Of a stretch of 64,000 bases of DNA, positions 1-55,480 are shown one piece after another. How positions within the stretch are numbered: the stretch's first letter is position 1; every line of letters begins with the position of its first letter. The stretch is taken from the NCBI RefSeq assembly GCF_013122565.1, contig NZ_CP053258.1. One strand, 5' to 3'. The position numbers and the translations under genes are program-made. Origin of the DNA: Escherichia coli (GTDB lineage: Bacteria; Pseudomonadota; Gammaproteobacteria; Enterobacterales; Enterobacteriaceae). The notes under the pieces are model-generated. The model did no database searches. It saw only the letters and a list, made by a program, of their open reading frames with translations, and was not told the DNA's origin.

Positions 1-1201
1 AGTCCCAGTGCAGGGTTTCATTGTCCAGATACTGGAGTGCTTCACCAACGTTATTGAAATCCCTTTTCTTCAGTTTATAAGACATCCCCTTTATTGTTCC
101 GTTACTGGCTACATCTGCTCCGCCTCCCAGCCTGTCTGCTACCGACCGACTAATTTTGTAAAGCTGTGAACCGTTAATGGCTTCATTACTGTCCGTCGAG
201 ATGTCACCTGCCGCCATATTGACGATGCGACGCTGTTGTGAGTTTGAGCCGACCGACACAACGTTGTCTTCATCTGTTGTAGAGTTTGCACCAATCGCGA
301 CGGAATTACTCCCTCCTACATAGGACGAACTCCCCAATGCAAGACCGTTTGATCCAACCGCTGCACTACCAGTCCCGATCGCAATACCATTTGTGGCTGA
401 CGCAGCGCTATTCTGGCCTAATGCAATGGTATTTGTGTTTAATGCTTGCGCATTTTGCCCAAAGGCAAGAGCGTTTGCGCCAGTAGCCGCTGCTGTATAC
501 CCCAGAGCAACAGCGCTTTCTCCTGTTGAATTGCTGTTTGCGCCTAATGCGAGGCTATTTTGGCCTCTTGCCCTCGCTTGAGTACCTACAGCCGTCGCAT
601 TTTCAGCAGCTTCGGTCTCTGCGCCTATCGCGATGGCGTTTGCTTCGCTAGTCAGGGCTTTTCTTCCTAATGCCAGGCTTTGCTCGCCGGTTGCCTTGCT
701 TTCATTGCCGAAGGCTAACGCGTAATTACCTTTAGCAATTGCCATTACGCCCATTGCCATCGCGTAGTTGCCACTCGCATCGGCGGAGGCTCCCATTGCG
801 GTAGCCCTATCGCCGCTAGCATAAGCATTAACCCCCAATGCGGTTGACGCATCGCCGCCAGCAGAACTTCTTGCACCGATAGACGTGCTATATTTACCTA
901 AAGCGCTGGCGAGCTCCCCAATAGCCGTCGATGCTCCATCGGTACTTGTGTGCTGGCTCGCTGTAGAGTTCTTACCGATAGCAACCCATCCATCACCACT
1001 ATTATGTCCTGCAGGTACAACGGGATTACCCGCAACATTATCTGCATATGCAAATGTCGATAACATTCCGCTGGCTGCAATTAACGTCGATACGAGCAGC
1101 TTACTGCGTCCAGACTTCTTTCCTCGACTCTTCGCCGTTTCGCTGGCGACACGAAAATTGCCCGTCGCTGGATCCCAGATAACTTTAAAAATTTTATTCA
1201 T
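1..1201 (-). CDS. upaG: Trimeric autotransporter adhesin (UpaG/EhaG/SadA-like), N-terminal ~400 codons; partial, continues beyond window start
   Basis: Hand translation of reverse strand from ATG at 1201: [36 protein letters not shown]... (extended signal peptide typical of autotransporters), then Gly/Ala/Ser-rich YadA-like head repeats (NSxAxG). Frame checked open to position 1. Missing from ORF track because no stop lies in the window. Confidence 0.75.
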
Positions 1202-16270: not shown

Positions 16271-17407
16271 ATGGATTTACTGATTATTTTGACCTATGTG
16301 GCTTTCGCATGGGCAATGTTTAAGATCTTCAAAATTCCTGTAAATAAATGGACCATTCCCACCGCGGCCCTGGGTGGAATATTTATTGTCAGCGGTTTAA
16401 TTCTGTTAATGAACTATAACCATCCGTATACCTTTAAAGCGCAAAAAGCGGTTATTTCTATTCCTGTTGTCCCACAGGTGACAGGCGTGGTGATCGAAGT
16501 GACGGATAAGAAAAATACGCTGATTAAAAAAGGTGAGGTGCTATTTCGACTGGACCCGACGCGTTATCAGGCGCGGGTGGATCGGCTGATGGCGGATATC
16601 GTTACCGCAGAACATAAACAGCGGGCGTTGGGCGCAGAGTTAGATGAGATGGCGGCGAATACTCAGCAGGCAAAGGCCACGCGGGATAAATTCGCTAAAG
16701 AGTATCAGCGTTACGCACGCGGCAGCCAGGCGAAAGTAAACCCGTTTTCAGAACGCGATATTGATGTGGCGCGGCAAAATTATCTGGCGCAGGAAGCCTC
16801 CGTAAAGTCATCGGCGGCGGAACAAAAACAGATCCAGAGCCAGCTGGATAGCCTGGTGTTGGGTGAACATTCTCAAATCGCCAGCCTGAAAGCGCAGCTC
16901 GCGGAAGCAAAATATAACCTTGAGCAGACGATAGTGCGTGCGCCGAGCGATGGTTATGTGACCCAGGTGCTGATTCGTCCGGGTACCTATGCCGCGTCGC
17001 TGCCGCTACGTCCGGTGATGGTGTTTATACCCGATCAGAAACGACAAATTGTGGCGCAGTTCCGTCAGAACTCCTTGCTGCGACTGGCTCCTGGCGACGA
17101 TGCGGAAGTGGTGTTTAATGCTCTGCCAGGTAAGGTATTCAGCGGTAAGCTGGCAGCCATTAGTCCAGCCGTTCCCGGCGGAGCTTATCAGTCGACCGGC
17201 ACCTTACAGACGTTAAACACAGCGCCGGGTTCAGATGGCGTTATCGCGACCATTGAACTGGATGAGCATACTGATTTGAGCGCATTACCAGACGGTATTT
17301 ACGCCCAGGTGGCGGTCTACTCTGATCATTTCAGCCATGTCTCGGTGATGCGCAAAGTACTGTTACGCATGACCAGCTGGGTGCATTACCTTTATCTCGA
17401 TCATTAA
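16271..17407 (+). CDS. yiaV: HlyD-family membrane-fusion-like protein YiaV (paralog of YibH)
   Basis: 378-aa [39 protein letters not shown]...; same length and architecture as the ORF at 8103. Confidence 0.85.
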
Positions 17408-43753: not shown

Positions 43754-45076
43754 ATGCAAGCCTATTTTGACCAGCTCGATCGCGTTCGTTATGAAGGCTC
43801 AAAATCCTCAAACCCGTTAGCATTCCGTCACTACAATCCCGACGAACTGGTGTTGGGCAAGCGTATGGAAGAGCACTTGCGTTTTGCCGCCTGCTACTGG
43901 CACACCTTCTGCTGGAACGGGGCGGATATGTTTGGTGTGGGGGCGTTTAATCGTCCGTGGCAGCAGCCTGGTGAGGCACTGGCGTTGGCGAAGCGTAAAG
44001 CAGATGTCGCATTTGAGTTTTTCCACAAGTTACATGTGCCATTTTATTGCTTCCACGATGTGGATGTTTCCCCTGAGGGCGCGTCGTTAAAAGAGTACAT
44101 CAATAATTTTGCGCAAATGGTTGATGTCCTGGCAGGCAAGCAAGAAGAGAGCGGCGTGAAGCTGCTGTGGGGAACCGCTAACTGCTTTACAAACCCTCGC
44201 TATGGCGCGGGTGCGGCGACGAACCCAGATCCTGAAGTCTTCAGTTGGGCGGCAACGCAAGTTGTTACAGCGATGGAAGCAACCCATAAATTGGGCGGTG
44301 AAAACTATGTCCTGTGGGGCGGTCGTGAAGGTTACGAAACTCTGTTAAATACCGACCTGCGTCAGGAGCGTGAACAACTGGGCCGCTTTATGCAAATGGT
44401 GGTTGAGCATAAACATAAAATCGGCTTCCAGGGCACGTTGCTTATCGAACCGAAACCGCAAGAACCGACCAAACATCAATATGATTACGATGCTGCGACA
44501 GTCTATGGCTTCCTGAAACAGTTTGGTCTGGAAAAAGAGATTAAACTGAACATTGAAGCTAACCATGCGACGCTGGCAGGTCACTCTTTCCATCATGAAA
44601 TAGCCACCGCCATTGCGCTTGGCCTGTTCGGTTCTGTCGACGCCAACCGTGGTGATGCACAACTGGGCTGGGACACCGACCAGTTCCCGAACAGTGTGGA
44701 AGAGAATGCGCTGGTGATGTATGAAATTCTCAAAGCAGGCGGTTTCACCACCGGCGGTCTGAACTTCGATGCCAAAGTACGTCGTCAAAGTACTGATAAA
44801 TATGATCTGTTTTACGGTCATATCGGCGCGATGGATACGATGGCACTGGCGCTGAAAATTGCAGCGCGCATGATTGAAGATGGCGAGCTGGATAAACGCA
44901 TCGCGCAGCGTTATTCCGGCTGGAATAGCGAATTAGGCCAGCAAATCCTGAAAGGCCAAATGTCACTGGCAGATTTAGCCAAATATGCTCAGGAACATAA
45001 TTTGTCTCCGGTGCATCAGAGTGGTCGCCAGGAACAACTGGAAAATCTGGTAAATCATTATCTGTTCGACAAATAA
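43754..45076 (+). CDS. xylA: Xylose isomerase
   Basis: ORF track 43742..45076; start taken at [31 protein letters not shown] (440 aa). Confidence 0.95.
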
Positions 45077-45147
45077 CGGCTAACTGTGCAGTCCGTTGGC
45101 CCGGTTATCGGTAGCGATACCGGGCATTTTTTTAAGGAACGATCGAT

Positions 45148-46602
45148 ATGTATATCGGGATAGATCTTGGCACCTCGGGCGTAAAAGTTATTTTGCTCAA
45201 CGAGCAGGGTGAGGTGGTTGCTGCGCAAACGGAAAAGCTGACCGTTTCGCGCCCGCATCCACTCTGGTCGGAACAAGACCCGGAACAGTGGTGGCAGGCA
45301 ACTGATCGCGCAATGAAAGCTCTGGGCGATCAGCATTCTCTGCAGGACGTTAAAGCATTGGGTATTGCCGGCCAGATGCACGGAGCAACCTTACTGGATG
45401 CTCAACAACGGGTATTGCGCCCTGCCATTTTGTGGAACGACGGGCGCTGTGCGCAAGAGTGCGCTTTGCTGGAAGCGCGAGTTCCGCAATCGCGGGTGAT
45501 TACCGGTAACCTGATGATGCCCGGATTTACTGCGCCTAAATTGCTATGGATTCAGCGGCATGAGCCGGAGATATTCCGTCAAATCGACAAAGTATTATTA
45601 CCGAAAGATTACTTGCGTCTGCGTATGACGGGGGAGTTTGCCAGCGATATGTCTGACGCAGCTGGCACCATGTGGCTGGATGTCGCAAAGCGTGACTGGA
45701 GTGACGTCATGCTGCAGGCTTGCAACTTATCTCGTGACCAGATGCCCGCATTATACGAAGGCAGCGAAATTACTGGTGCTTTGTTACCTGAAGTTGCGAA
45801 AGCGTGGGGTATGGCGACGGTGCCAGTTGTCGCAGGCGGTGGCGATAATGCAGCTGGTGCGGTTGGTGTGGGAATGGTTGATGCTAATCAGGCAATGTTA
45901 TCGCTGGGGACGTCGGGGGTCTATTTTGCTGTCAGCGAAGGGTTCTTAAGCAAGCCAGAAAGCGCCGTACATAGCTTTTGCCATGCGCTACCGCAACGTT
46001 GGCATTTAATGTCTGTGATGCTGAGTGCAGCGTCGTGTCTGGATTGGGCCGCGAAATTAACCGGCCTGAGCAATGTCCCAGCTTTAATCGCTGCAGCTCA
46101 ACAGGCTGATGAAAGTGCCGAGCCAGTTTGGTTTCTGCCTTATCTTTCCGGCGAGCGTACGCCACACAATAATCCCCAGGCGAAGGGGGTTTTCTTTGGT
46201 TTGACTCATCAACATGGCCCCAATGAACTGGCGCGAGCAGTGCTGGAAGGCGTGGGTTATGCGCTGGCAGATGGCATGGATGTCGTGCATGCCTGCGGTA
46301 TTAAACCGCAAAGTGTTACGTTGATTGGGGGCGGGGCGCGTAGTGAGTACTGGCGTCAGATGCTGGCGGATATCAGCGGTCAGCAGCTCGATTACCGTAC
46401 GGGGGGGGATGTGGGGCCAGCACTGGGCGCAGCAAGGCTGGCGCAGATTGCGGCGAATCCAGAGAGAGCGCTCATTGAGTTGTTGCCGCAACTACCGTTA
46501 GAACAGTCGCATCTACCAGATGCGCAGCGTTATGCCGCTTATCAGCCACGACGTGAAACGTTCCGTCGCCTCTATCAGCAACTTCTGCCATTAATGGCGT
46601 AA
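45148..46602 (+). CDS. xylB: Xylulokinase
   Basis: 484-aa ORF MYIGIDLGTSGVKVILLNEQGEVVAAQTEKL... (FGGY kinase). Confidence 0.95.
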   Translation: MYIGIDLGTSGVKVILLNEQGEVVAAQTEKLTVSRPHPLWSEQDPEQWWQATDRAMKALGDQHSLQDVKALGIAGQMHGATLLDAQQRVLRPAILWNDGRCAQECALLEARVPQSRVITGNLMMPGFTAPKLLWIQRHEPEIFRQIDKVLLPKDYLRLRMTGEFASDMSDAAGTMWLDVAKRDWSDVMLQACNLSRDQMPALYEGSEITGALLPEVAKAWGMATVPVVAGGGDNAAGAVGVGMVDANQAMLSLGTSGVYFAVSEGFLSKPESAVHSFCHALPQRWHLMSVMLSAASCLDWAAKLTGLSNVPALIAAAQQADESAEPVWFLPYLSGERTPHNNPQAKGVFFGLTHQHGPNELARAVLEGVGYALADGMDVVHACGIKPQSVTLIGGGARSEYWRQMLADISGQQLDYRTGGDVGPALGAARLAQIAANPERALIELLPQLPLEQSHLPDAQRYAAYQPRRETFRRLYQQLLPLMA

Positions 46603-46770
46603 ACGTTATCCCCTGCCTGACCGGGTGGGGGATAATTCGCATCTATATATATCGGTAATTAATTAATATTTAGTATGAATTTATTCTGAAAATCATTTGT
46701 TAATGGCATTTTTCAGTTTTGTCTTTCGTTGGTTACTCGTAATGTATCGCTGGTAGATATGGAGATCGTT

Positions 46771-47112
46771 ATGAAAACCTCAAAGACTGTGGCAAAACTA
46801 TTATTTGTTGTCGGGGCGCTGGTTTATCTGGTTGGGCTATGGATCTCATGCCCATTGTTAAGTGGAAAAGGCTATTTTCTTGGCGTGTTAATGACAGCAA
46901 CTTTTGGCAACTATGCATATCTTCGCGCAGAAAAACTTGGGCAACTGGATGATTTTTTTATCCGCGTCTGCCAGTTGCTAGCGTTAATCACTATCGGTCT
47001 CTTGTTTATCGGTGTTTTAAACGCACCTATCAATGCTTATGAAATGGTGATCTACCCCATCGCCTTTTTTGTCTGCTTGTTTGGTGAAATGCGTTTGTTT
47101 CGCTCGGCATGA
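46771..47112 (+). CDS. yiaB: Inner-membrane protein YiaB
   Basis: ORF track 46729..47112; start taken at MKTSKTVAKLLFVVGALVYLVGLW (113 aa). Gene name assigned by position next to xylB. Confidence 0.7.
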   Translation: MKTSKTVAKLLFVVGALVYLVGLWISCPLLSGKGYFLGVLMTATFGNYAYLRAEKLGQLDDFFIRVCQLLALITIGLLFIGVLNAPINAYEMVIYPIAFFVCLFGEMRLFRSA

Positions 47113-47157
47113 GCAACATAAAGCTCTTACACATTCAGGAATGAAAGGAATACTGTG

Positions 47158-47595
47158 ATGGACAACAAAATATCAACCTATTCTCCGGCATTCAGTATTG
47201 TGTCATGGATAGCTCTCGTTGGTGGTATCGTTACCTATCTGTTAGGGCTATGGAATGCAGAGATGCAGTTAAATGAAAAAGGGTATTATTTTGCCGTACT
47301 GGTGTTAGGACTGTTTTCTGCGGCGTCTTATCAAAAGACCGTTCGGGACAAGTATGAAGGCATACCGACCACCTCCATTTATTATATGACCTGCCTGACT
47401 GTCTTTATTATCTCTGTTGCATTACTGATGGTAGGTCTGTGGAATGCGACATTATTACTCAGCGAAAAAGGTTTTTATGGACTGGCTTTCTTCTTAAGCT
47501 TGTTTGGAGCAGTAGCGGTGCAGAAGAATATTCGTGATGCCGGAATAAACCCACCAAAAGAAACACAGGTTACCCAGGAAGAATACAGCGAATAA
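47158..47595 (+). CDS. yiaA: Inner-membrane protein YiaA (internally duplicated YiaAB-type two-TM domain)
   Basis: ORF track 47155..47595; 145 aa from [10 protein letters not shown]; two repeated modules resembling the upstream yiaB product ([14 protein letters not shown]... / [20 protein letters not shown]). Confidence 0.7.
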
Positions 47596-47603
47596 TTCAC
47601 GTA

Positions 47604-47635
47604 AGCCCGGTCAGTCCAATGTGACCGGGCTTTTA
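47604..47635. terminator. Bidirectional rho-independent terminator between convergent yiaA and wecH
   Basis: Stem agcccggtca (47604..47613) / tgaccgggct (47622..47631), loop gtccaatg, T-run after. Confidence 0.7.
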
Positions 47636-47636
47636 C

Positions 47637-48632
47637 TTAACTCACTAATCTGTTTCTGTCGATTCGTTGTACCAACATAGAAAGTAACAAACTCGCTGCC
47701 AACGTCGCGCAAAATATCCAAATAATATCCAGTATTGGCCAGTTTTTAAGCTCAATCCCCCGGGTGCGCAGCGCATGGATAATCAAGGCGTGGAATCCGT
47801 ATATACCCAACGAATGGCGTGAGATTAAGCCAAGTCCGCGAATGGTACACGTATCCAGCGTGTTTTTAACCAGAGTCAATAGCGCGATTGCGCAGATAAA
47901 AACCATCGGCCCACAGTAAAGATACCAGGTGTCGGCAAAATTTCCGCGCCACTGCAATTCATATAATGTCCCGCGAGAGATAATAAAAACACCCGTCGCA
48001 AACAGTGCGGCACTCACCCACGACAGTGCTTTATGCTGTGTGTCCATCATCCCTATAGCGCGGCCCAACATGCCATACAGGATGTAGTAAAAAGTATCGC
48101 CATTGATATATAAGTTAATTGGCAGCCATTCAAAACCGTCGATTTTCTGCGGCACGGTGTTTGGGTTAGCGATGATACCAATCACCACCATTAGCACCAG
48201 CAACATTTTTCCGCCGACGTTCTTCACCTGAATCAGCGGTGAAACCAGATAAATCACCGCAATCGCGAAGAAAAACCATAGGTGGTAAAACACTGGCTTT
48301 TGCAGCAGGTTTTTCAGCGCTAACTCCACATTAATGGAGGTAAACAGTGCAATGTAGAGCAGCGCGATTGCGCTATAAAAAAACAGACATAAGCCGATAC
48401 GCAAGAAATGGCGCGGCTGGGCGCTGCGTTCGCCAAAAAAGAGATAGCCGGAAATCATGAAAAATAGCGGCACGCTGACACGAGAGGCAGAGTTCAGAAT
48501 ATTGGCGATATCCCAGGTGACGGGGCTAACACTATGAGCATTGGTCACATACCAGGTAGTAGTGTGAATCATCACCACCATTAAACACGCTATCCCTCGC
48601 AGGTTATCAATCCAGTAAATTTTGGGCTGCAT
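47637..48632 (-). CDS. wecH: O-acetyltransferase WecH (acyltransferase family 3)
   Basis: 331-aa polytopic [32 protein letters not shown]... Confidence 0.9.
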
Positions 48633-48806
48633 CTGTGTCTCTGTATCTGGTTAAAAAAAGTCTGACCGATAAATCATTCAGTTGGCGCACTGGAATAATC
48701 TGAGTTTTATCACTACAGCTTATAGAGGCTTAAGGAAATTCGTAAGATATCAGCCACTATACCGATATAAATAATAAGACTCACCTGCAAACCAGACGGT
48801 AATTTA

Positions 48807-49106
48807 ATGATGATGAACTCTTTCTTTCCGGCAATGGCACTTATGGTGCTAGTAGGTTGTTCAACACCGCCACCCGTGCAGAAAGCACAACGGGTAAAGG
48901 TTGATCCTCTGCGTTCGTTGAATATGGAAGCGTTATGCAAGGATCAGGCGGCAAAACGTTATAACACCGGCGAACAAAAAATCGACGTCACCGCCTTCGA
49001 ACAGTTCCAGGGAAGCTATGAAATGCGCGGTTATACCTTCCGTAAAGAGCAGTTTGTCTGTTCTTTTGACGCAGATGGCCATTTTTTGCATCTTTCCATG
49101 CGTTAA
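48807..49106 (+). CDS. ysaB: Putative lipoprotein YsaB
   Basis: 99-aa ORF MMMNSFFPAMALMVLVGCSTPPPV... (lipobox LVGC). Confidence 0.8.
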   Translation: MMMNSFFPAMALMVLVGCSTPPPVQKAQRVKVDPLRSLNMEALCKDQAAKRYNTGEQKIDVTAFEQFQGSYEMRGYTFRKEQFVCSFDADGHFLHLSMR

Positions 49107-49200
49107 GCCCTGCTTTTTCCCGTTTCATACTGTATATCTTCCATCCAGCGGGTATACTGATCCCTTCCTTTAAATCCACACGTATCCAGCACGAAATAAT

Positions 49201-50112
49201 ATGCAAAAGTTTGATACCAGGACCTTCCAGGGCTTGATCCTGACCTTACAGGATTACTGGGCTCGCCAGGGCTGCACCATTGTTCAACCATTGGACATGG
49301 AAGTCGGCGCGGGAACCTCTCACCCAATGACCTGTCTGCGCGCGCTGGGGCCAGAACCGATGGCGGCTGCTTATGTTCAGCCTTCTCGTCGCCCGACCGA
49401 TGGTCGCTACGGCGAAAACCCCAACCGTTTACAGCACTACTATCAGTTCCAGGTGGTCATTAAGCCATCGCCGGACAATATTCAGGAGCTGTACCTCGGT
49501 TCTCTGAAAGAGCTGGGCATGGACCCGACTATTCACGACATCCGTTTCGTGGAAGATAACTGGGAAAACCCGACGCTGGGTGCCTGGGGGCTGGGCTGGG
49601 AAGTGTGGCTGAACGGCATGGAAGTGACGCAGTTCACTTACTTCCAGCAGGTTGGTGGTCTGGAGTGTAAACCGGTTACCGGCGAGATCACCTACGGTCT
49701 GGAACGTCTGGCCATGTACATTCAGGGCGTAGACAGCGTTTACGACCTGGTCTGGAGCGACGGCCCGCTGGGTAAAACCACCTATGGCGACGTGTTCCAT
49801 CAGAACGAAGTGGAGCAGTCCACTTACAACTTTGAGTACGCGGATGTGGACTTCCTGTTCACCTGCTTTGAGCAGTACGAGAAAGAAGCGCAGCAGCTGC
49901 TGGCGCTGGAAAATCCGCTGCCGCTGCCAGCCTACGAGCGTATTCTGAAAGCCGCCCACAGCTTCAACCTGCTGGATGCGCGTAAAGCCATCTCCGTCAC
50001 CGAGCGTCAGCGCTACATTCTGCGCATTCGCACCCTGACCAAAGCAGTGGCAGAAGCATACTACGCTTCCCGTGAAGCCCTCGGCTTCCCGATGTGCAAC
50101 AAAGATAAGTAA
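49201..50112 (+). CDS. glyQ: Glycine--tRNA ligase alpha subunit
   Basis: 303-aa [47 protein letters not shown]... Confidence 0.97.
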
Positions 50113-50121
50113 GAGGCGGCC

Positions 50122-52191
50122 ATGTCTGAGAAAACTTTTCTGGTGGAAATCGGCACTGAAGAGCTGCCACCAAAAGCACTGCGCAGCCTGGCAGAGTCCT
50201 TTGCTGCGAACTTTACTGCGGAGCTGGATAACGCCGGCCTCGCACACGGCACCGTTCAATGGTTTGCTGCTCCGCGTCGTCTGGCGCTGAAAGTAGCTAA
50301 CCTGGCGGAAGCGCAACCGGATCGTGAAATCGAAAAACGCGGCCCGGCGATTGCCCAGGCGTTCGACGCTGAAGGCAAACCGAGCAAAGCGGCAGAAGGT
50401 TGGGCGCGTGGTTGCGGTATTACCGTTGACCAGGCTGAGCGTCTGACTACCGATAAAGGCGAATGGCTGCTGTATCGCGCCCATGTGAAGGGCGAAAGCA
50501 CTGAAGCACTGCTGCCGAATATGGTTGCGACTTCGCTGGCGAAGCTGCCGATCCCGAAACTGATGCGTTGGGGCGCAAGCGACGTGCACTTCGTGCGTCC
50601 GGTGCACACCGTGACCCTGCTGCTGGGCGACAAAGTCATTCCGGCAACCATTCTGGGCATTCAGTCCGATCGCGTGATTCGCGGCCACCGCTTTATGGGC
50701 GAGCCGGAATTCACCATCGATAACGCCGATCAGTATCCGGAAATTCTGCGTGAGCGCGGGAAAGTCATCGCCGATTACGAAGAACGTAAGGCGAAGATTA
50801 AAGCCGATGCCGAAGAAGCAGCACGGAAGATTGGCGGTAACGCTGACTTAAGCGAAAGTCTGCTGGAAGAAGTGGCTTCGCTGGTGGAGTGGCCGGTTGT
50901 GCTGACCGCAAAATTCGAAGAGAAATTCCTCGCGGTGCCGTCTGAAGCGCTGGTTTACACCATGAAAGGTGACCAGAAATACTTCCCGGTGTATGCGAAC
51001 GATGGCAAACTGCTGCCGAACTTCATCTTCGTTGCCAACATCGAATCGAAAGATCCGCAGCAAATTATCTCTGGTAACGAGAAAGTCGTTCGTCCACGTC
51101 TGGCGGATGCCGAGTTCTTCTTCAATACCGACCGTAAAAAACGTCTGGAAGATAACCTGCCGCGCCTGCAAACCGTGCTGTTCCAGCAACAGCTGGGTAC
51201 GCTGCGTGACAAAACTGACCGCATCCAGGCGCTGGCTGGCTGGATTGCTGAACAGATTGGCGCTGACGTTAACCACGCAACCCGTGCGGGCCTGCTGTCT
51301 AAGTGTGACCTGATGACCAACATGGTCTTCGAGTTCACCGACACCCAAGGCGTTATGGGGATGCACTACGCGCGTCACGATGGCGAAGCGGAAGATGTCG
51401 CGGTGGCGCTGAATGAGCAGTATCAGCCGCGCTTTGCCGGTGATGACCTGCCGTCCAACCCGGTAGCTTGTGCGCTGGCGATTGCTGATAAGATGGATAC
51501 TCTGGCGGGTATCTTCGGTATCGGTCAGCATCCGAAAGGCGACAAAGACCCGTTTGCGTTGCGTCGTGCCGCACTTGGCGTACTGCGTATTATCGTTGAG
51601 AAGAACCTCAACCTTGATCTGCAAACGCTGACCGAAGAAGCAGTGCGTCTGTATGGCGATAAGCTGACTAATGCCAACGTGGTTGATGATGTTATCGACT
51701 TTATGCTCGGTCGCTTCCGCGCCTGGTATCAGGACGAAGGTTACACCGTTGATACCATCCAGGCGGTACTGGCGCGTCGTCCGACTCGTCCGGCTGATTT
51801 CGATGCCCGTATGAAAGCGGTATCGCACTTCCGTACCCTGGAAGCAGCTGCAGCACTGGCGGCGGCGAACAAACGTGTATCTAACATCCTGGCGAAATCT
51901 GACGAAGTGCTGAGCGATCGCGTGAATGCCTCTACTCTGAAAGAGCCAGAAGAAATTAAACTGGCGATGCAGGTTGTGGTGCTACGTGACAAGCTGGAGC
52001 CGTACTTTGCGGAAGGTCGTTACCAGGATGCGCTGGTCGAACTGGCAGAGCTGCGTGAGCCGGTTGATGCTTTCTTCGATAAAGTGATGGTCATGGTTGA
52101 TGACAAAGAATTGCGAATCAACCGTCTTACCATGCTGGAGAAACTGCGCGAATTATTCCTGCGCGTTGCAGATATTTCGCTGTTGCAGTAA
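50122..52191 (+). CDS. glyS: Glycine--tRNA ligase beta subunit
   Basis: 689-aa [39 protein letters not shown]... Confidence 0.97.
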
Positions 52192-52205
52192 TCGATAAGT
52201 AATGG

Positions 52206-52241
52206 AAAAACCGACATTCATTTTGGGTGTCGGTTTTTTTT
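52206..52241 (+). terminator. Rho-independent terminator of glyQS
   Basis: Stem aaaaaccgaca / tgtcggttttt with 11-nt loop, followed by T-run (52234..52241). Confidence 0.8.
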
Positions 52242-52259
52242 AATCTTAAGGAATGAGAT

Positions 52260-52619
52260 TTGGCAAAGTTACGAAAGATAGTGGTGGCTGGTCGCACCTG
52301 GTTTTGGGTTTATCGTTACTACTATGCAGATGAGCGAGATTGTTATTTAAGGATAATAAGCGAAGATAAAAAAGCACAGTTTGTAATCTATTTCAGAACT
52401 CCTACTTACCATTACGGTTGTCACCCATTAAATGATGGCCTGCCAGCTTTATACAATAATGTAAAAATCAATATTAATTTGAATCAACCTCGCTTTGTGG
52501 CTCAGTTACTGACTTATGTGTTGGAGAATATTCTTCAAGGTACACCATCAGATGTAATCGAGTACGAGAACGGTAATGAGATGTTACAGCAGCTTGGGTA
52601 TGAGTTTGATTATAAATAA
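52260..52619 (+). CDS. Hypothetical protein, 119 aa, TTG start, AT-rich orphan ORF
   Basis: ORF track 52260..52619 (MAKLRKIVVAGRTWFWVYRYYYADERDCYLRIISEDKK...); AGGA 9 nt upstream of TTG; visibly AT-rich compared with flanking glyS; no family recognised. Confidence 0.4.
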   Translation: MAKLRKIVVAGRTWFWVYRYYYADERDCYLRIISEDKKAQFVIYFRTPTYHYGCHPLNDGLPALYNNVKININLNQPRFVAQLLTYVLENILQGTPSDVIEYENGNEMLQQLGYEFDYK

Positions 52620-52894
52620 TAAAATCCTCATGCCCCATAAATCCTGGTTAATACGATTGTGTTTAATAATCACCTGTTGAATATAATATTATTTATCTAT
52701 TCATTAAGTGAAATTTTTTTTCGGAATTTATCAACAAGAGTGAAATCAGAATTTACGCTAGAATAGCTGCGGGTGCTTGAGACTGTTTGTCTCAGGTATT
52801 CACCGAAAGGCAGACAGAGAAAAGCCCCACCTGACTATAAATCAAAGTGTACTGCACCCATTTTGTTGGACGATGAAATGGAATAGCCCCTGAT

Positions 52895-53416
52895 ATGTCA
52901 AAGCCAAAATACCCTTTTGAAAAGCGCCTTGAAGTCGTGAATCACTACTTCACTACTGATGATGGTTACAGGATCATCTCGGCACGTTTTGGTGTCCCCC
53001 GAACCCAGGTCAGGACATGGGTTGCCCTCTATGAAAAACATGGAGAAAAAGGTTTAATTCCCAAACCTAAAGGTGTTAGTGCTGATCCAGAGTTGCGTAT
53101 TAAGGTCGTGAAAGCTGTGATCGAGCAGCACATGTCCCTTAATCAGGCTGCTGCTCACTTTATGCTTGCTGGTAGTGGTTCTGTAGCCAGGTGGCTGAAG
53201 GTTTATGAAGAGCGCGGAGAAGCTGGTTTACGCGCGCTCAAGATTGGCACCAAAAGAAACATTGCAATATCAGTTGATCCAGAAAAAGCGGCATCAGCAT
53301 TGGAGCTGTCAAAAGACCGACGCATTGAGGATCTTGAAAGGCAAGTTCGATTTCTTGAAACGCGGCTTGTGTATCTAAAAAAGCTGAAAGCCTTAGCTCA
53401 TCCCACGAAAAAGTGA
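52895..53416 (+). CDS. insJ: IS150 OrfA (HTH DNA-binding protein)
   Basis: 173-aa ORF MSKPKYPFEKRLEVVNHYFTTDDGYRIISARFGVPRTQVRTWVALYEKHGEKGL... Confidence 0.95.
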   Translation: MSKPKYPFEKRLEVVNHYFTTDDGYRIISARFGVPRTQVRTWVALYEKHGEKGLIPKPKGVSADPELRIKVVKAVIEQHMSLNQAAAHFMLAGSGSVARWLKVYEERGEAGLRALKIGTKRNIAISVDPEKAASALELSKDRRIEDLERQVRFLETRLVYLKKLKALAHPTKK

Positions 53417-54264
53417 AAGTACTCAACGAGCTAAGGCAGTTTTATCCTCTTGATGAGCTTCTCAGGGCTGCGGAGATACCGCGCAGTACGTTTTATTACC
53501 ATCTAAAGGCTCTCAGCAAGCCTGACAAGTATGCGGACGTTAAAAAGCGTATTGGTGAGATTTATCATGAGAATAGAGGCCGATACGGATACCGTAGGGT
53601 AACGCTGTCTCTTCATCGAGAAGGGAAACAGATTAACCATAAAGCTGTTCAGCGCCTGATGGGAACCCTCTCACTTAAGGCAGCGATTAAGGTCAAGCGA
53701 TACCGCTCTTACAGAGGAGAGGTAGGGCAAACCGCCCCCAATGTTCTCCAAAGAGATTTCAAGGCTACGCGGCCAAACGAGAAGTGGGTTACCGATGTTA
53801 CTGAATTTGCAGTCAATGGGCGCAAGCTGTATTTGTCTCCAGTAATAGATCTCTTCAACAATGAAGTTATTTCTTACAGCCTTTCGGAAAGACCTGTGAT
53901 GAACATGGTTGAGAATATGCTCGATCAGGCATTCAAAAAGCTTAATCCTCACGAGCATCCTGTTCTGCACTCTGACCAGGGATGGCAGTATCGTATGAGA
54001 AGATATCAAAATATCCTTAAAGAACATGGTATTAAACAAAGCATGTCCAGAAAAGGCAATTGTCTGGATAATGCTGTGGTGGAGTGTTTCTTTGGAACCT
54101 TAAAGTCGGAGTGTTTTTATCTTGATGAGTTCAGTAATATAAGCGAACTGAAGGATGCTGTTACGGAATATATTGAATACTACAACAGAAGAAGAATTAG
54201 CCTGAAATTAAAAGGTCTGACTCCAATTGAATATCGGAATCAGACCTATATGCCTCGTGTTTAA
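53413..54264 (+). CDS. insK: IS150 OrfB (DDE integrase/transposase catalytic domain)
   Basis: 283-aa ORF overlapping insJ; DDE region (WVTDVTEF..., HSDQGWQY...); OrfAB fusion expected by -1 frameshift at the heptamer. Confidence 0.95.
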
Positions 54265-54306
54265 CTGTCCAACTTTTTGGGGTCAGTACAAAGTGAGGCT
54301 GCCTCT

Positions 54307-54520
54307 ATGCTTCAACAACATAAGGTTAGCCTCTTACTCGTTGGAAATCAACACAGGAGGCTGGGAATGCCGCAGAAATACGGATTACTATTCGTTAATA
54401 GTGATTTGTTTCACGCTTTTATTTTTCACCTGGATGATAAGAGATTCACTGTGTGAATTGCATATTAAACAGGAGAGTTATGAGCTGGCGGCGTTTTTAG
54501 CCTGCAAATTGAAAGAGTAA
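54307..54520 (+). pseudogene. hokA: hokA locus (Hok-family membrane toxin), apparently frameshifted and separated from its upstream region by IS150
   Basis: Hok C-terminal domain SLIVICFTLLFFTWMIRDSLCELHIKQESYELAAFLACKLKE is encoded to the stop at 54518..54520, but the Hok-type start MPQKY (ATG 54367) is in the +1 frame and reads MPQKYGLLFVNSDLF... to a stop at 54454. An overlapping mok-like frame starts at ATG 54307. Confidence 0.55.
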
Positions 54521-54679
54521 GAGTCTTCGGCGGGAAATTATTCCCGCCTTTCTTACGGTGTTGGGTATTCTCAATGCACCCTAATTTATTTCTTTAATGA
54601 ATGTTTTTTTTAAAAAATACGCATGGATTTGGCTATTAGATAAGTTTTTAATCGGGAACAGGAATGGTTCGGAGCCTTC

Positions 54680-55051
54680 ATGAATAAACTGCTTTTACTG
54701 TTGATAATGCTTTATCAACGACATCTTTCTCCTCGCAAAGGATACCGCTGTGCTTACAGTGTGTTGTACCAAACGCAGGGATGTTCGGGAGCAGTCAAAG
54801 AGATTATTCAACAGAAAGGTGTTATTGCAGGCTGGGGCGATATACGTCAGCGTTTTGCAGATTGCCGACTTGCGGCAAAGACAATCAGGCAGAAGCAACA
54901 CCTGAACGAGGTAATACGTAAAAAGAAGAATAATGATTGTGATTGTTCCGGGTGTGATGGTGCGGTCTGTCGTGATTGCGACATTCCGGTGCCGGATCTG
55001 GATTGTTCCTGGGACTGTTCTTCTCTACATTTAAAGCGGTTTTTCCAATAA
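54680..55051 (+). CDS. YidD-like (DUF37-like) protein with cysteine-rich C-terminal tail
   Basis: 123-aa ORF MNKLLLLLIMLYQRHLSPRKGYRCAYSVLYQTQGCSGAVKEIIQQKGVIAGWGDIRQRF... resembles the YidD core as I recall it (YQxxISP..G..CRF.P.CS...G.IKG.W); tail NNDCDCSGCDGAVCRDCDIPVPDLDCSWDCSS holds 8 Cys; GGAG 8 nt upstream. Confidence 0.5.
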   Translation: MNKLLLLLIMLYQRHLSPRKGYRCAYSVLYQTQGCSGAVKEIIQQKGVIAGWGDIRQRFADCRLAAKTIRQKQHLNEVIRKKKNNDCDCSGCDGAVCRDCDIPVPDLDCSWDCSSLHLKRFFQ

Positions 55052-55055
55052 AAAA

Positions 55056-55092
55056 ATCCCCGCCAAATGGCAGGGATCTTAGATTCTGTGCT
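55056..55092 (-). terminator. Rho-independent terminator of cspA
   Basis: On the minus strand, stem atccctgcc / ggcggggat (one G-U pair) followed by a U-run; directly 3' of the cspA stop. Confidence 0.7.
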
Positions 55093-55104
55093 TTTAAGCA
55101 GAGA

Positions 55105-55317
55105 TTACAGGCTGGTTACGTTACCAGCTGCCGGGCCTTTAGCGCCGCTTTCGATGGTGAAGGACACTTTCTGACCTTCGTCCAGAGATTTGTAACCATC
55201 GTTCTGGATAGCAGAGAAGTGTACAAACACGTCTTTAGAGCCATCGTCAGGAGTGATGAAGCCGAAGCCTTTGTCAGCGTTGAACCATTTTACGATACCA
55301 GTCATTTTACCGGACAT
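55105..55317 (-). CDS. cspA: Major cold-shock protein CspA
   Basis: 70-aa [73 protein letters not shown]. Confidence 0.98.
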
Positions 55318-55480
55318 AGTGTATTACCTTTAATAATTAATTGTGCCTTTCGGCGATATGGCGTGCTTTACAGATTTTTGAAGCGTTAAAGGAAATGCAC
55401 TACGAGGGGTATCAACGATAACTCTTGAAGAGGACTTGCCTTACTACACTGCTTTAATGGTCTGTACGTCAAACCGTTGA
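55318..55480 (-). promoter_or_regulatory. cspA long 5' UTR (cold-box / thermosensing leader) region
   Basis: cspA is known to carry a ~160-nt structured 5' UTR; extent assigned from that knowledge, not resolved base by base here. Confidence 0.5.

Follow-up and report, generated by a model that had tools for sequence, protein, structure and literature searches.

We analysed a 64,000-nucleotide stretch of an Escherichia coli chromosome (contig NZ_CP053258.1, assembly GCF_013122565.1; hereafter the window), which carries, in this order, xylBA-wecH-glyQS, a complete copy of the insertion sequence (IS) IS150, hokA, a yidD-like open reading frame (ORF) and cspA. IS150, an IS3-family element, occupies positions 52848-54290 on the plus strand, where it interrupts the type I toxin-antitoxin locus hokA/sokA. 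The element is known, the kind of event is known, and the element itself is routine annotation. What our analysis adds is its position in the hokA leader and in sokA, a frameshift in hokA, the distinction of this allele from that of K-12, the commonness of the allele, and an oriented target heptamer.

The element is 1443 bp long, exactly as annotated in MG1655, which served as our reference, and differs from the MG1655 copy by 13 substitutions and no indels (99.1% identity). Its termini are TG…CA (TGTACTG…CAGTACA). The left terminal inverted repeat (IRL; 52848-52871, plus strand), TGTACTGCACCCATTTTGTTGGAC, pairs with the right one (IRR; 54267-54290, plus strand), …GTCCAACTTTTTGGGGTCAGTACA; aligned with the reverse-complemented right end, it agrees at 18 of the first 24 positions, with TGTACTG, CCC(C) and GTTGGAC as the end-to-end matching blocks. 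Over the terminal 44 bp and 101 bp the window copy does not differ from the K-12 element, the outermost differences lying at IS positions 45 and 1342. At the left junction AAG (52845-52847) precedes the start of IS150, TGTACTGCACCC (in a wider reading, …CTATAAATCAAAG/TGTACTGCACCCATTTTGTTGGACG…), and at the right junction the end of IS150, GGGGTCAGTACA, precedes AAG (54291-54293; in a wider reading, …CCAACTTTTTGGGGTCAGTACA/AAGTGAGGCTGCC…). Both the sequence and its comparison with empty sites identify these trinucleotides as the left and right copies of a target duplication. The empty loci of strains CUPF09 and 7/2 read …ATCAAAG/TGAGGCT…, with one AAG, and are colinear with both window flanks; 77 bp to the left of the IS and at least 230 bp to its right are contiguous in empty-site genomes. 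Because these genomes hold a single AAG and match both flanks, the window element is a simple insertion of IS150. We found no second IS150 in the window, judging by 20-mers shared with the element (0 on either strand). None of 5,426 complete E. coli genomes has an identical copy, the closest being 99.7% identical.

The coding capacity of the element is also intact. In the ORF list, insJ (orfA; 52895-53416, plus strand) encodes a 173-residue helix-turn-helix DNA-binding protein (Pfam HTH_28, 4e-23; HTH_29; HTH_32), and insK (orfB; 53413-54264, plus strand) encodes the 283-residue catalytic part of the DDE transposase (Pfam rve, 3e-29; rve_2; HTH_21). The insK frame is -1 relative to insJ. The slippery heptamer A AAA AAG, a signal for programmed -1 frameshifting, lies at 53377-53383 (plus strand) with its first A in the third codon position of insJ, and is read cuA AAA AAG in the insJ frame; simulated -1 slippage yields an uninterrupted 456-residue InsJK fusion. 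Six nucleotides past the heptamer starts a stem-loop with a perfect 10-bp stem (GCCUUAGCUC … GAGCUAAGGC; 53390-53437, plus strand), whose minimum free energy of -20.4 kcal/mol compares with a shuffle mean of -10.3 (z = -3.95). This structure is the predicted frameshift stimulator expected at such a site. The Prokaryotic Genome Annotation Pipeline (PGAP) labels the same element 'programmed frameshift' in strain LHM10-1 and others. InsK retains the DDE triad (D128, D188 and E224), with 35 residues separating the second D from the E. Three residues differ from K-12, namely InsJ V159 (M in K-12), InsK G48 (S in K-12) and InsK R259 (S in K-12). With no inactivating change visible and three substitutions carried, it is plausible that the element can still transpose. 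The original prediction, made from the window alone, had described a complete 1443-bp copy with imperfect terminal repeats, a flanking AAG duplication, an intact insJ/insK pair with its frameshift heptamer, and a simple insertion rather than a recombinant junction. Base-for-base re-reading, comparison with the IS150 reference and the empty sites, and the intact frames, fusion and triad bear out each of these points.

The same prediction had placed the element in the 'hokA upstream region'. It does lie 5′ of hokA, but this description understates the case. The Rfam model RF01794, which begins at the 5′ end of the hok mRNA leader and extends to the hok AUG, gives a single match of 124.9 bits to the intact locus of strain 7/2. 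In the window the model is divided between 52847 and 54291, exactly at the IS boundaries. Model positions 1-83 correspond to the 5′ part of the leader, which starts GGGUGCUUGAG… (52771-52847, plus strand) and is severed from hokA; positions ~84-157 fall at 54291-54369, on the 3′ part that runs to the hokA AUG (54294-54369, plus strand) and is colinear with empty-site genomes. The window match scores 86 bits, its remainder past position 83 running spuriously into IS150. The IS thus sits inside the transcribed hokA leader. Counted on the empty site, 77 nt of the hokA transcript precede the insertion point and 73 nt separate it from the hokA AUG downstream; in the window the element is 76 nt from the AUG, and its transposase genes point toward hokA.

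The antisense partner would be divided as well. sokB and sokE are annotated 48-104 nt and 44-103 nt upstream of their respective hok AUGs, and in MG1655 a 35-nt sokA remnant is annotated immediately on the glyS side of its IS150. By analogy with sokB and sokE, the putative 3′ portion of sokA would occupy 52817-52847 (minus strand; -74 to -104) and its 5′ portion 54294-54319 (minus strand; -48 to -73 relative to the hokA AUG), with the promoter further right, and the insertion would lie in the middle of sokA and cut the antisense gene in two. A consensus promoter and terminator scan of 52650-54650 returned no more promoter-like sites than did shuffled sequences and did not locate the hokA and sokA promoters. 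An insertion of this kind would disconnect mokA/hokA from the promoter and the 5′ leader and sever sokA, and both hokA and sokA are expected to be silenced by it.

Translation and alignment to intact hokA show that the gene itself is a pseudogene (54367-54520, plus strand). A 1-bp insertion after codon 8 (…GATTACTATTCG… in the window against …GATTACT-TTC…) brings in a premature stop at 54454-56; instead of an open hok frame of ~50 codons there is a stop after 29. The frame is intact in strains 4/4, OZ197100 and GF60, and PGAP calls the identical hokA sequence of LHM10-1 'frameshifted'. CUPF09 carries the same frameshift and has no IS150 at the site, so the frameshift is independent of the IS insertion. 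A terminator-like hairpin at 54529-54548 (plus strand; GGCGGGAAATTATTCCCGCC then TTTCTT) marks the 3′ end of the hokA mRNA. In this strain, the hokA/sokA module would therefore be dead twice, by the IS split and by the hokA frameshift.

Directly past the duplication on the IRR side lies TGAGGCT (54294-54300, plus strand), an instance of the heptamer YGRGRCY, and the same arrangement is found at other IS150 sites. The common rule is IRR, 3-bp duplication, then YGRGRCY, with IRR toward hok at the natural hok sites. At hokA the duplication and heptamer are AAG/TGAGGCT (~1,132 genomes), at hokE CCC/TGGGGCT (549 genomes with at least 80% coverage of a synthetic junction), and at hokB GCC/TGAGACT at leader nt 4-6 (611 genomes, including K-12 HMS174). 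Two plasmid hok loci, that of the IncF plasmid pMB9081_1 (CCA/CGAGGCC) and that of R721 (AAC/CCACGAGGC, offset by 3 nt), form part of 292 plasmid records with at least 80% junction-probe coverage. Several genomes carry IS150 in the unrelated coding sequence iroN, at GTT/TGGGGCT. The hokE junction was built from the rule before the search, and it matched real genomes 100/100, in one piece. In hokC, IS150 inserted at REL606 position 16,972 (ACC/CGAGGCC), at the homologous leader nucleotide; this insertion recurs in the long-term evolution experiment (LTEE) and has been reported in three evolved lines (PMC5419217).

The sokE::IS150, hokB/trg::IS150 and hokC::IS150 alleles known from natural isolates and evolution experiments share with the window the element, its orientation with IRR toward hok, and the 3-bp duplication followed by YGRGRCY (PMC11551753; PMC5419217). 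They differ in lying at different paralogous loci with different duplications (CCC at hokE, GCC at hokB and ACC at hokC). The hokE and hokC sites are at the leader nucleotide homologous to the window hokA site, whereas hokB uses the motif at nt 8, not that at nt ~78. Independent insertions at the homologous leader position likewise carry different duplications: CCA in pMB9081_1, AAC in R721 and ACC in hokC. Leaders of hok genes contain two or three exact copies of the motif per ~153 nt, as compared with 0.69 per kb in the window. The copies lie at nt 8 (plus), nt 59 (minus) and nt 78-81 (plus), and each of these positions is a documented insertion site in some paralog. IS150 itself contains 0 copies of YGRGRCY.

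Laboratory insertions were considered as well: LTEE Table S1 and a PeerJ study (PMC5419217) together supplied 16 distinct IS150 sites that arose de novo. At six of the 16 the heptamer occurs exactly and in register on one strand; given a background frequency of 0.00078 per position in 155 kb of REL606, this corresponds to P = 1.8e-15. About six further sites show 6/7 matches or a 2-nt shift. Those with the heptamer outside hok include pflB (969,836), yfiH-clpB (2,655,781) and 3,713,694. The IS150 duplications in the LTEE are mostly 3 bp. In REL606, the PeerJ coordinates for hokE (582,237) and mokB (1,272,468) lie within cusA and chaB, the rows being shifted or based on another reference, and only the hokC positions were used. 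Sampling of other IS150 copies among the top matches gave mostly the same degenerate iroN copy and another hokE copy, with one new non-hok site.

Three observations stand beside this result. IS150 recurs upstream of the ldr type I toxin genes (REL606 1,270,660; PMC5419217, Table 3) in three LTEE populations, with a 4-bp duplication, CCGG, followed by TGAGGCG, a 6/7 motif match; ldr may be a second type I toxin family that shares the IS150 hotspot property. The IS150 copy that truncates iroN in several E. coli strains is 1444 bp long, annotated as frameshifted, decayed and common to many strains, and it is among the closest matches to the window copy (99.5%). We also considered that the target might resemble the IS ends: the subterminal TGGGGTC of IRR matches the motif at 6/7 positions, but the IRL match is weaker and the geometry differs, and we keep this as a lead only.

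The window-type allele is common. With 100-bp junction probes and at least 80% coverage in the 5,426 genomes, the window-type left junction was found in 1,132 genomes (~21%) and the right junction in 1,166; the K-12-type junction was found in 1,662 and the empty hokA site in 2,801. Near-full-length IS150 is present in 2,798 genomes, as compared with 2,794 that are positive for a hokA junction; from these totals, rather than from genome-by-genome matching, it seems that almost every IS150-bearing complete E. coli genome has one copy in the hokA leader. In LHM10-1, VE-T9, UTME-7, 4/4, OZ197100 and GF60, the insertion point, the orientation and the right AAG are identical to those of the window. 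LHM10-1 additionally shares the hokA frameshift and a 230-bp right flank that is 100% identical, and its IS150 copy is 8 substitutions from that of the window. What sets the window apart from these strains is an unrelated segment of 474 bp, absent from all of them, that separates glyS from the hokA promoter.

We put at about 90% the probability that the window locus reflects ordinary IS150 transposition into hokA/sokA, with the site set by a preference for YGRGRCY. On this reading, a full-length IS150 integrated by ordinary transposition and duplicated the 3-bp target AAG. Its choice of site would follow from a preference for the arrangement IRR, 3-bp duplication, YGRGRCY (TGAGGCT here), and the conserved stems of hok leaders, by holding two or three heptamers, would make hok loci recurrent IS150 targets on chromosomes and plasmids. 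The transposase presumably reads the motif directly. We also lean, if only slightly, towards a broader reading in which IS150 has a strong, oriented target preference, the stems of hok (possibly also ldr) leaders are built of the heptamer and its complement, and IS150 acts as a semi-specific disarmer of chromosomal and plasmid hok/sok modules.

Could the flanking AAGs be coincidental and the element mark a recombinant or rearranged junction, left by IS-IS recombination or an adjacent deletion? A chance 3-bp flank match has a probability of 1 in 64, so the duplication is unconvincing by itself. Some IS150 copies at hok loci do lack a duplication, namely the K-12 allele and a Klebsiella plasmid copy whose left flank is of R1 type and whose right flank is of hokA type; 'IS150-del' events have been described (PMC11708052), and leftward of 52771 the window sequence is strongly divergent from that of other E. 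coli. The contiguity of both flanks in empty-site genomes, with exactly one AAG in between, speaks against such a junction, and at least 77 bp separate the IS end from the boundary of divergence, which is therefore a separate event. We consider a rearranged junction highly improbable. Even less credence can be given to the notion that the window is simply K-12-like and carries the same hokA::IS150 as MG1655. The two loci do share the gene order (glyS - IS150 - hokA - cspA) and the element, with the K-12 IS150 (insJ/insK, b3557/b3558) having the same 1443-bp length, two-ORF layout, A AAA AAG signal and host locus. In addition, the glyS-side junction, or deletion endpoint, of the K-12 allele is 2 bp from the window insertion point (MG1655 3720633-3722075 compared with window 52845-54335). 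The junction sequences refute identity, however. The K-12 element is inverted relative to hokA and the window copy has the opposite orientation; the K-12 flanks are GTT and TAC without duplication, whereas the window copy has an intact 3-bp duplication; the K-12 allele lacks 38 bp of leader, a deletion not present in the window; and the distance to the hokA AUG is 32 nt in K-12 as against 76 nt in the window. Moreover, the K-12-type and window-type alleles occur in separate genome sets, and no complete E. coli genome is more than 98.3% identical to the window over the upstream 8 kb.

The remaining alternatives accept a simple insertion and concern why this site is occupied so often. One holds that the allele spread from one ancient insertion, by descent and homologous recombination, rather than by repeated insertion at a preferred target. 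The hokA copies of the window, LHM10-1, OZ197100 and GF60 have a distinctive IS haplotype in common (7-10 substitutions from canonical), and the window copy was therefore inherited, not new; the AAG duplication, too, is the same in all chromosomal hokA cases. By contrast, strain 4/4 carries at the same site a canonical haplotype, 1 nt from the K-12 and plasmid copies; its identity to the window is only 93.6% in the hokA flank but 99.0% in the IS, a pattern consistent with two or more insertions or with gene conversion of the IS. At paralogous hok loci, insertions with other duplications have struck the homologous nucleotide, and de novo laboratory insertions repeatedly fall at the same positions (PMC5419217). 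We regard a single ancient insertion as an unlikely account of the spread, though one that deserves some weight. Less weight still goes to the proposal that hok loci are struck repeatedly because loss of hok/sok is advantageous, and not through sequence recognition. Adaptive inactivation has been proposed by the authors of an evolution experiment and of a hotspot survey (PMC5419217; bioRxiv 10.1101/527788), and insertions that destroy sok alone would be lethal, leaving fewer viable positions. Selection does not explain the nucleotide-exact positions and fixed orientation across leaders that are only ~55% identical, nor the same heptamer at iroN and at the pflB, yfiH-clpB and 3,713,694 sites, and we think it improbable as the explanation.

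Several points nevertheless weigh against our main reading of ordinary transposition to a site set by YGRGRCY. Four of the 16 de novo sites lack any resemblance to the motif and the R721 site is 3 nt off, so the motif is not obligatory. Some of the hok sites that the motif explains also served to define it, which leaves as independent evidence only the hokE prediction, the 5′ site at hokB and the sites outside hok. The orientation of the IS is known for the natural copies only, as the LTEE table does not report it. Together, the allele counts (1,132 + 1,662 + 2,801) surpass 5,426 by ~3%, the 80%-coverage criterion being approximate. As to the activity of the window copy, its InsK S259R substitution is private among the IS150 copies examined. 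Selection for hok/sok inactivation may also add to the recurrence, with both factors acting together.

The K-12 allele may itself fit the preference. The 'IS150-del' class of the LTEE combines insertion with an adjacent deletion and lacks a duplication (PMC11708052), and the K-12 hokA::IS150 looks like a member of this class. Before the deletion, the right end of the K-12 element would have faced GTA/AGAGGCT on the minus strand, a 6/7 motif match. The K-12 allele may have arisen when IS150 inserted at the motif and a neighbouring deletion then ran as far as the mirror-image motif.

Two related loci illustrate how junctions of this kind can change. In LHM10-1 the left copy of the duplication is AAA, not AAG (locus positions 2555-2557); this is a point mutation that arose after insertion, and it shows that simple insertions, too, can have degraded duplications. 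On the Klebsiella pneumoniae plasmid NZ_CP082938.1 (locus 1108-2550), a 1443-bp IS150 relative, 94.6% identical and annotated as ISKpn8, lacks a duplication and is flanked by a hok leader of R1 type on the left side (…CATTAACCCA) and by one of hokA type on the right (AAGTGAGGCTCCCC…). It looks like the product of recombination between two IS copies in different hok loci.

The surroundings of the window locus have features of their own. The 474-bp segment (52192-52665; 36% GC) stands in place of the usual glyS terminator region and glyS-hokA spacer, and has its own terminator-like hairpin after glyS and a 119-residue ORF (52260-52619, plus strand). Even when the stringency was lowered, the segment had 0 matches in the 5,426 complete genomes. 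Pfam recognises no domain in the ORF, which is related only to hypothetical proteins from a few E. coli (99% and 87%) and from E. fergusonii (92%). Ancestry is mosaic: the xylB-glyS side (44000-52191) has the 98.3% ceiling of identity given above, and the hokA side (54291-54700) is 99.8% identical to seven strains (LHM10-1, VE-T9, XJ5.2, CP52E, UTME-7, 6EVA and wlxctx60). For the right flank, identity to a small group of strains, LHM10-1 among them, is 99.8-100%. Between hokA and cspA lies a 123-residue YidD-like ORF (54680-55051, plus strand) with a cysteine-rich tail, which is absent from K-12 and scores 26.1 bits against Pfam YidD, just below the 27-bit cut-off. Its region was found in only ~112 of the 5,426 genomes at ≥80% coverage of the probe, no more than ~20 bp of which lie in the ORF. 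The cspA thermoregulator/mRNA is full-length (55050-55478, minus strand; Rfam RF01766, 481 bits), as expected beside the hokA locus.

Evolved lines have yielded insertions of IS150 into hokC, hokE and mokB (PMC5419217); another study noted sokE::IS150 in >400 isolates, as well as sokA::IS150 in MG1655 (PMC11551753); and hok/sok loci are reported to lie near mobile-element hotspots (bioRxiv 10.1101/527788). The main LTEE paper on IS elements mentions no target consensus for IS150 (PMC7881107), and we found no description of an oriented IS150 target preference in the literature searched, an older report being possible. Among IS3-family elements, IS1397 and ISKpn1 show transposase-determined targeting of short palindromic repeats (PMC1525189). 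They resemble IS150 in a sequence- or structure-specific choice within short, conserved, stem-forming repeats. They differ in that their target is the repetitive extragenic palindrome, or palindromic unit (REP/PU), whereas the proposed target of IS150 is an asymmetric heptamer that happens to form hok-leader stems. If IS150 indeed has the preference we propose, its recurrent insertions at hok, ldr, pflB and yfiH-clpB, in natural isolates as in evolution experiments, would not be evidence of selection, and much of the 'parallel' IS150 mutation in evolution experiments would represent mutational bias. The hok/sok plasmid-addiction modules would then have a dedicated natural enemy.

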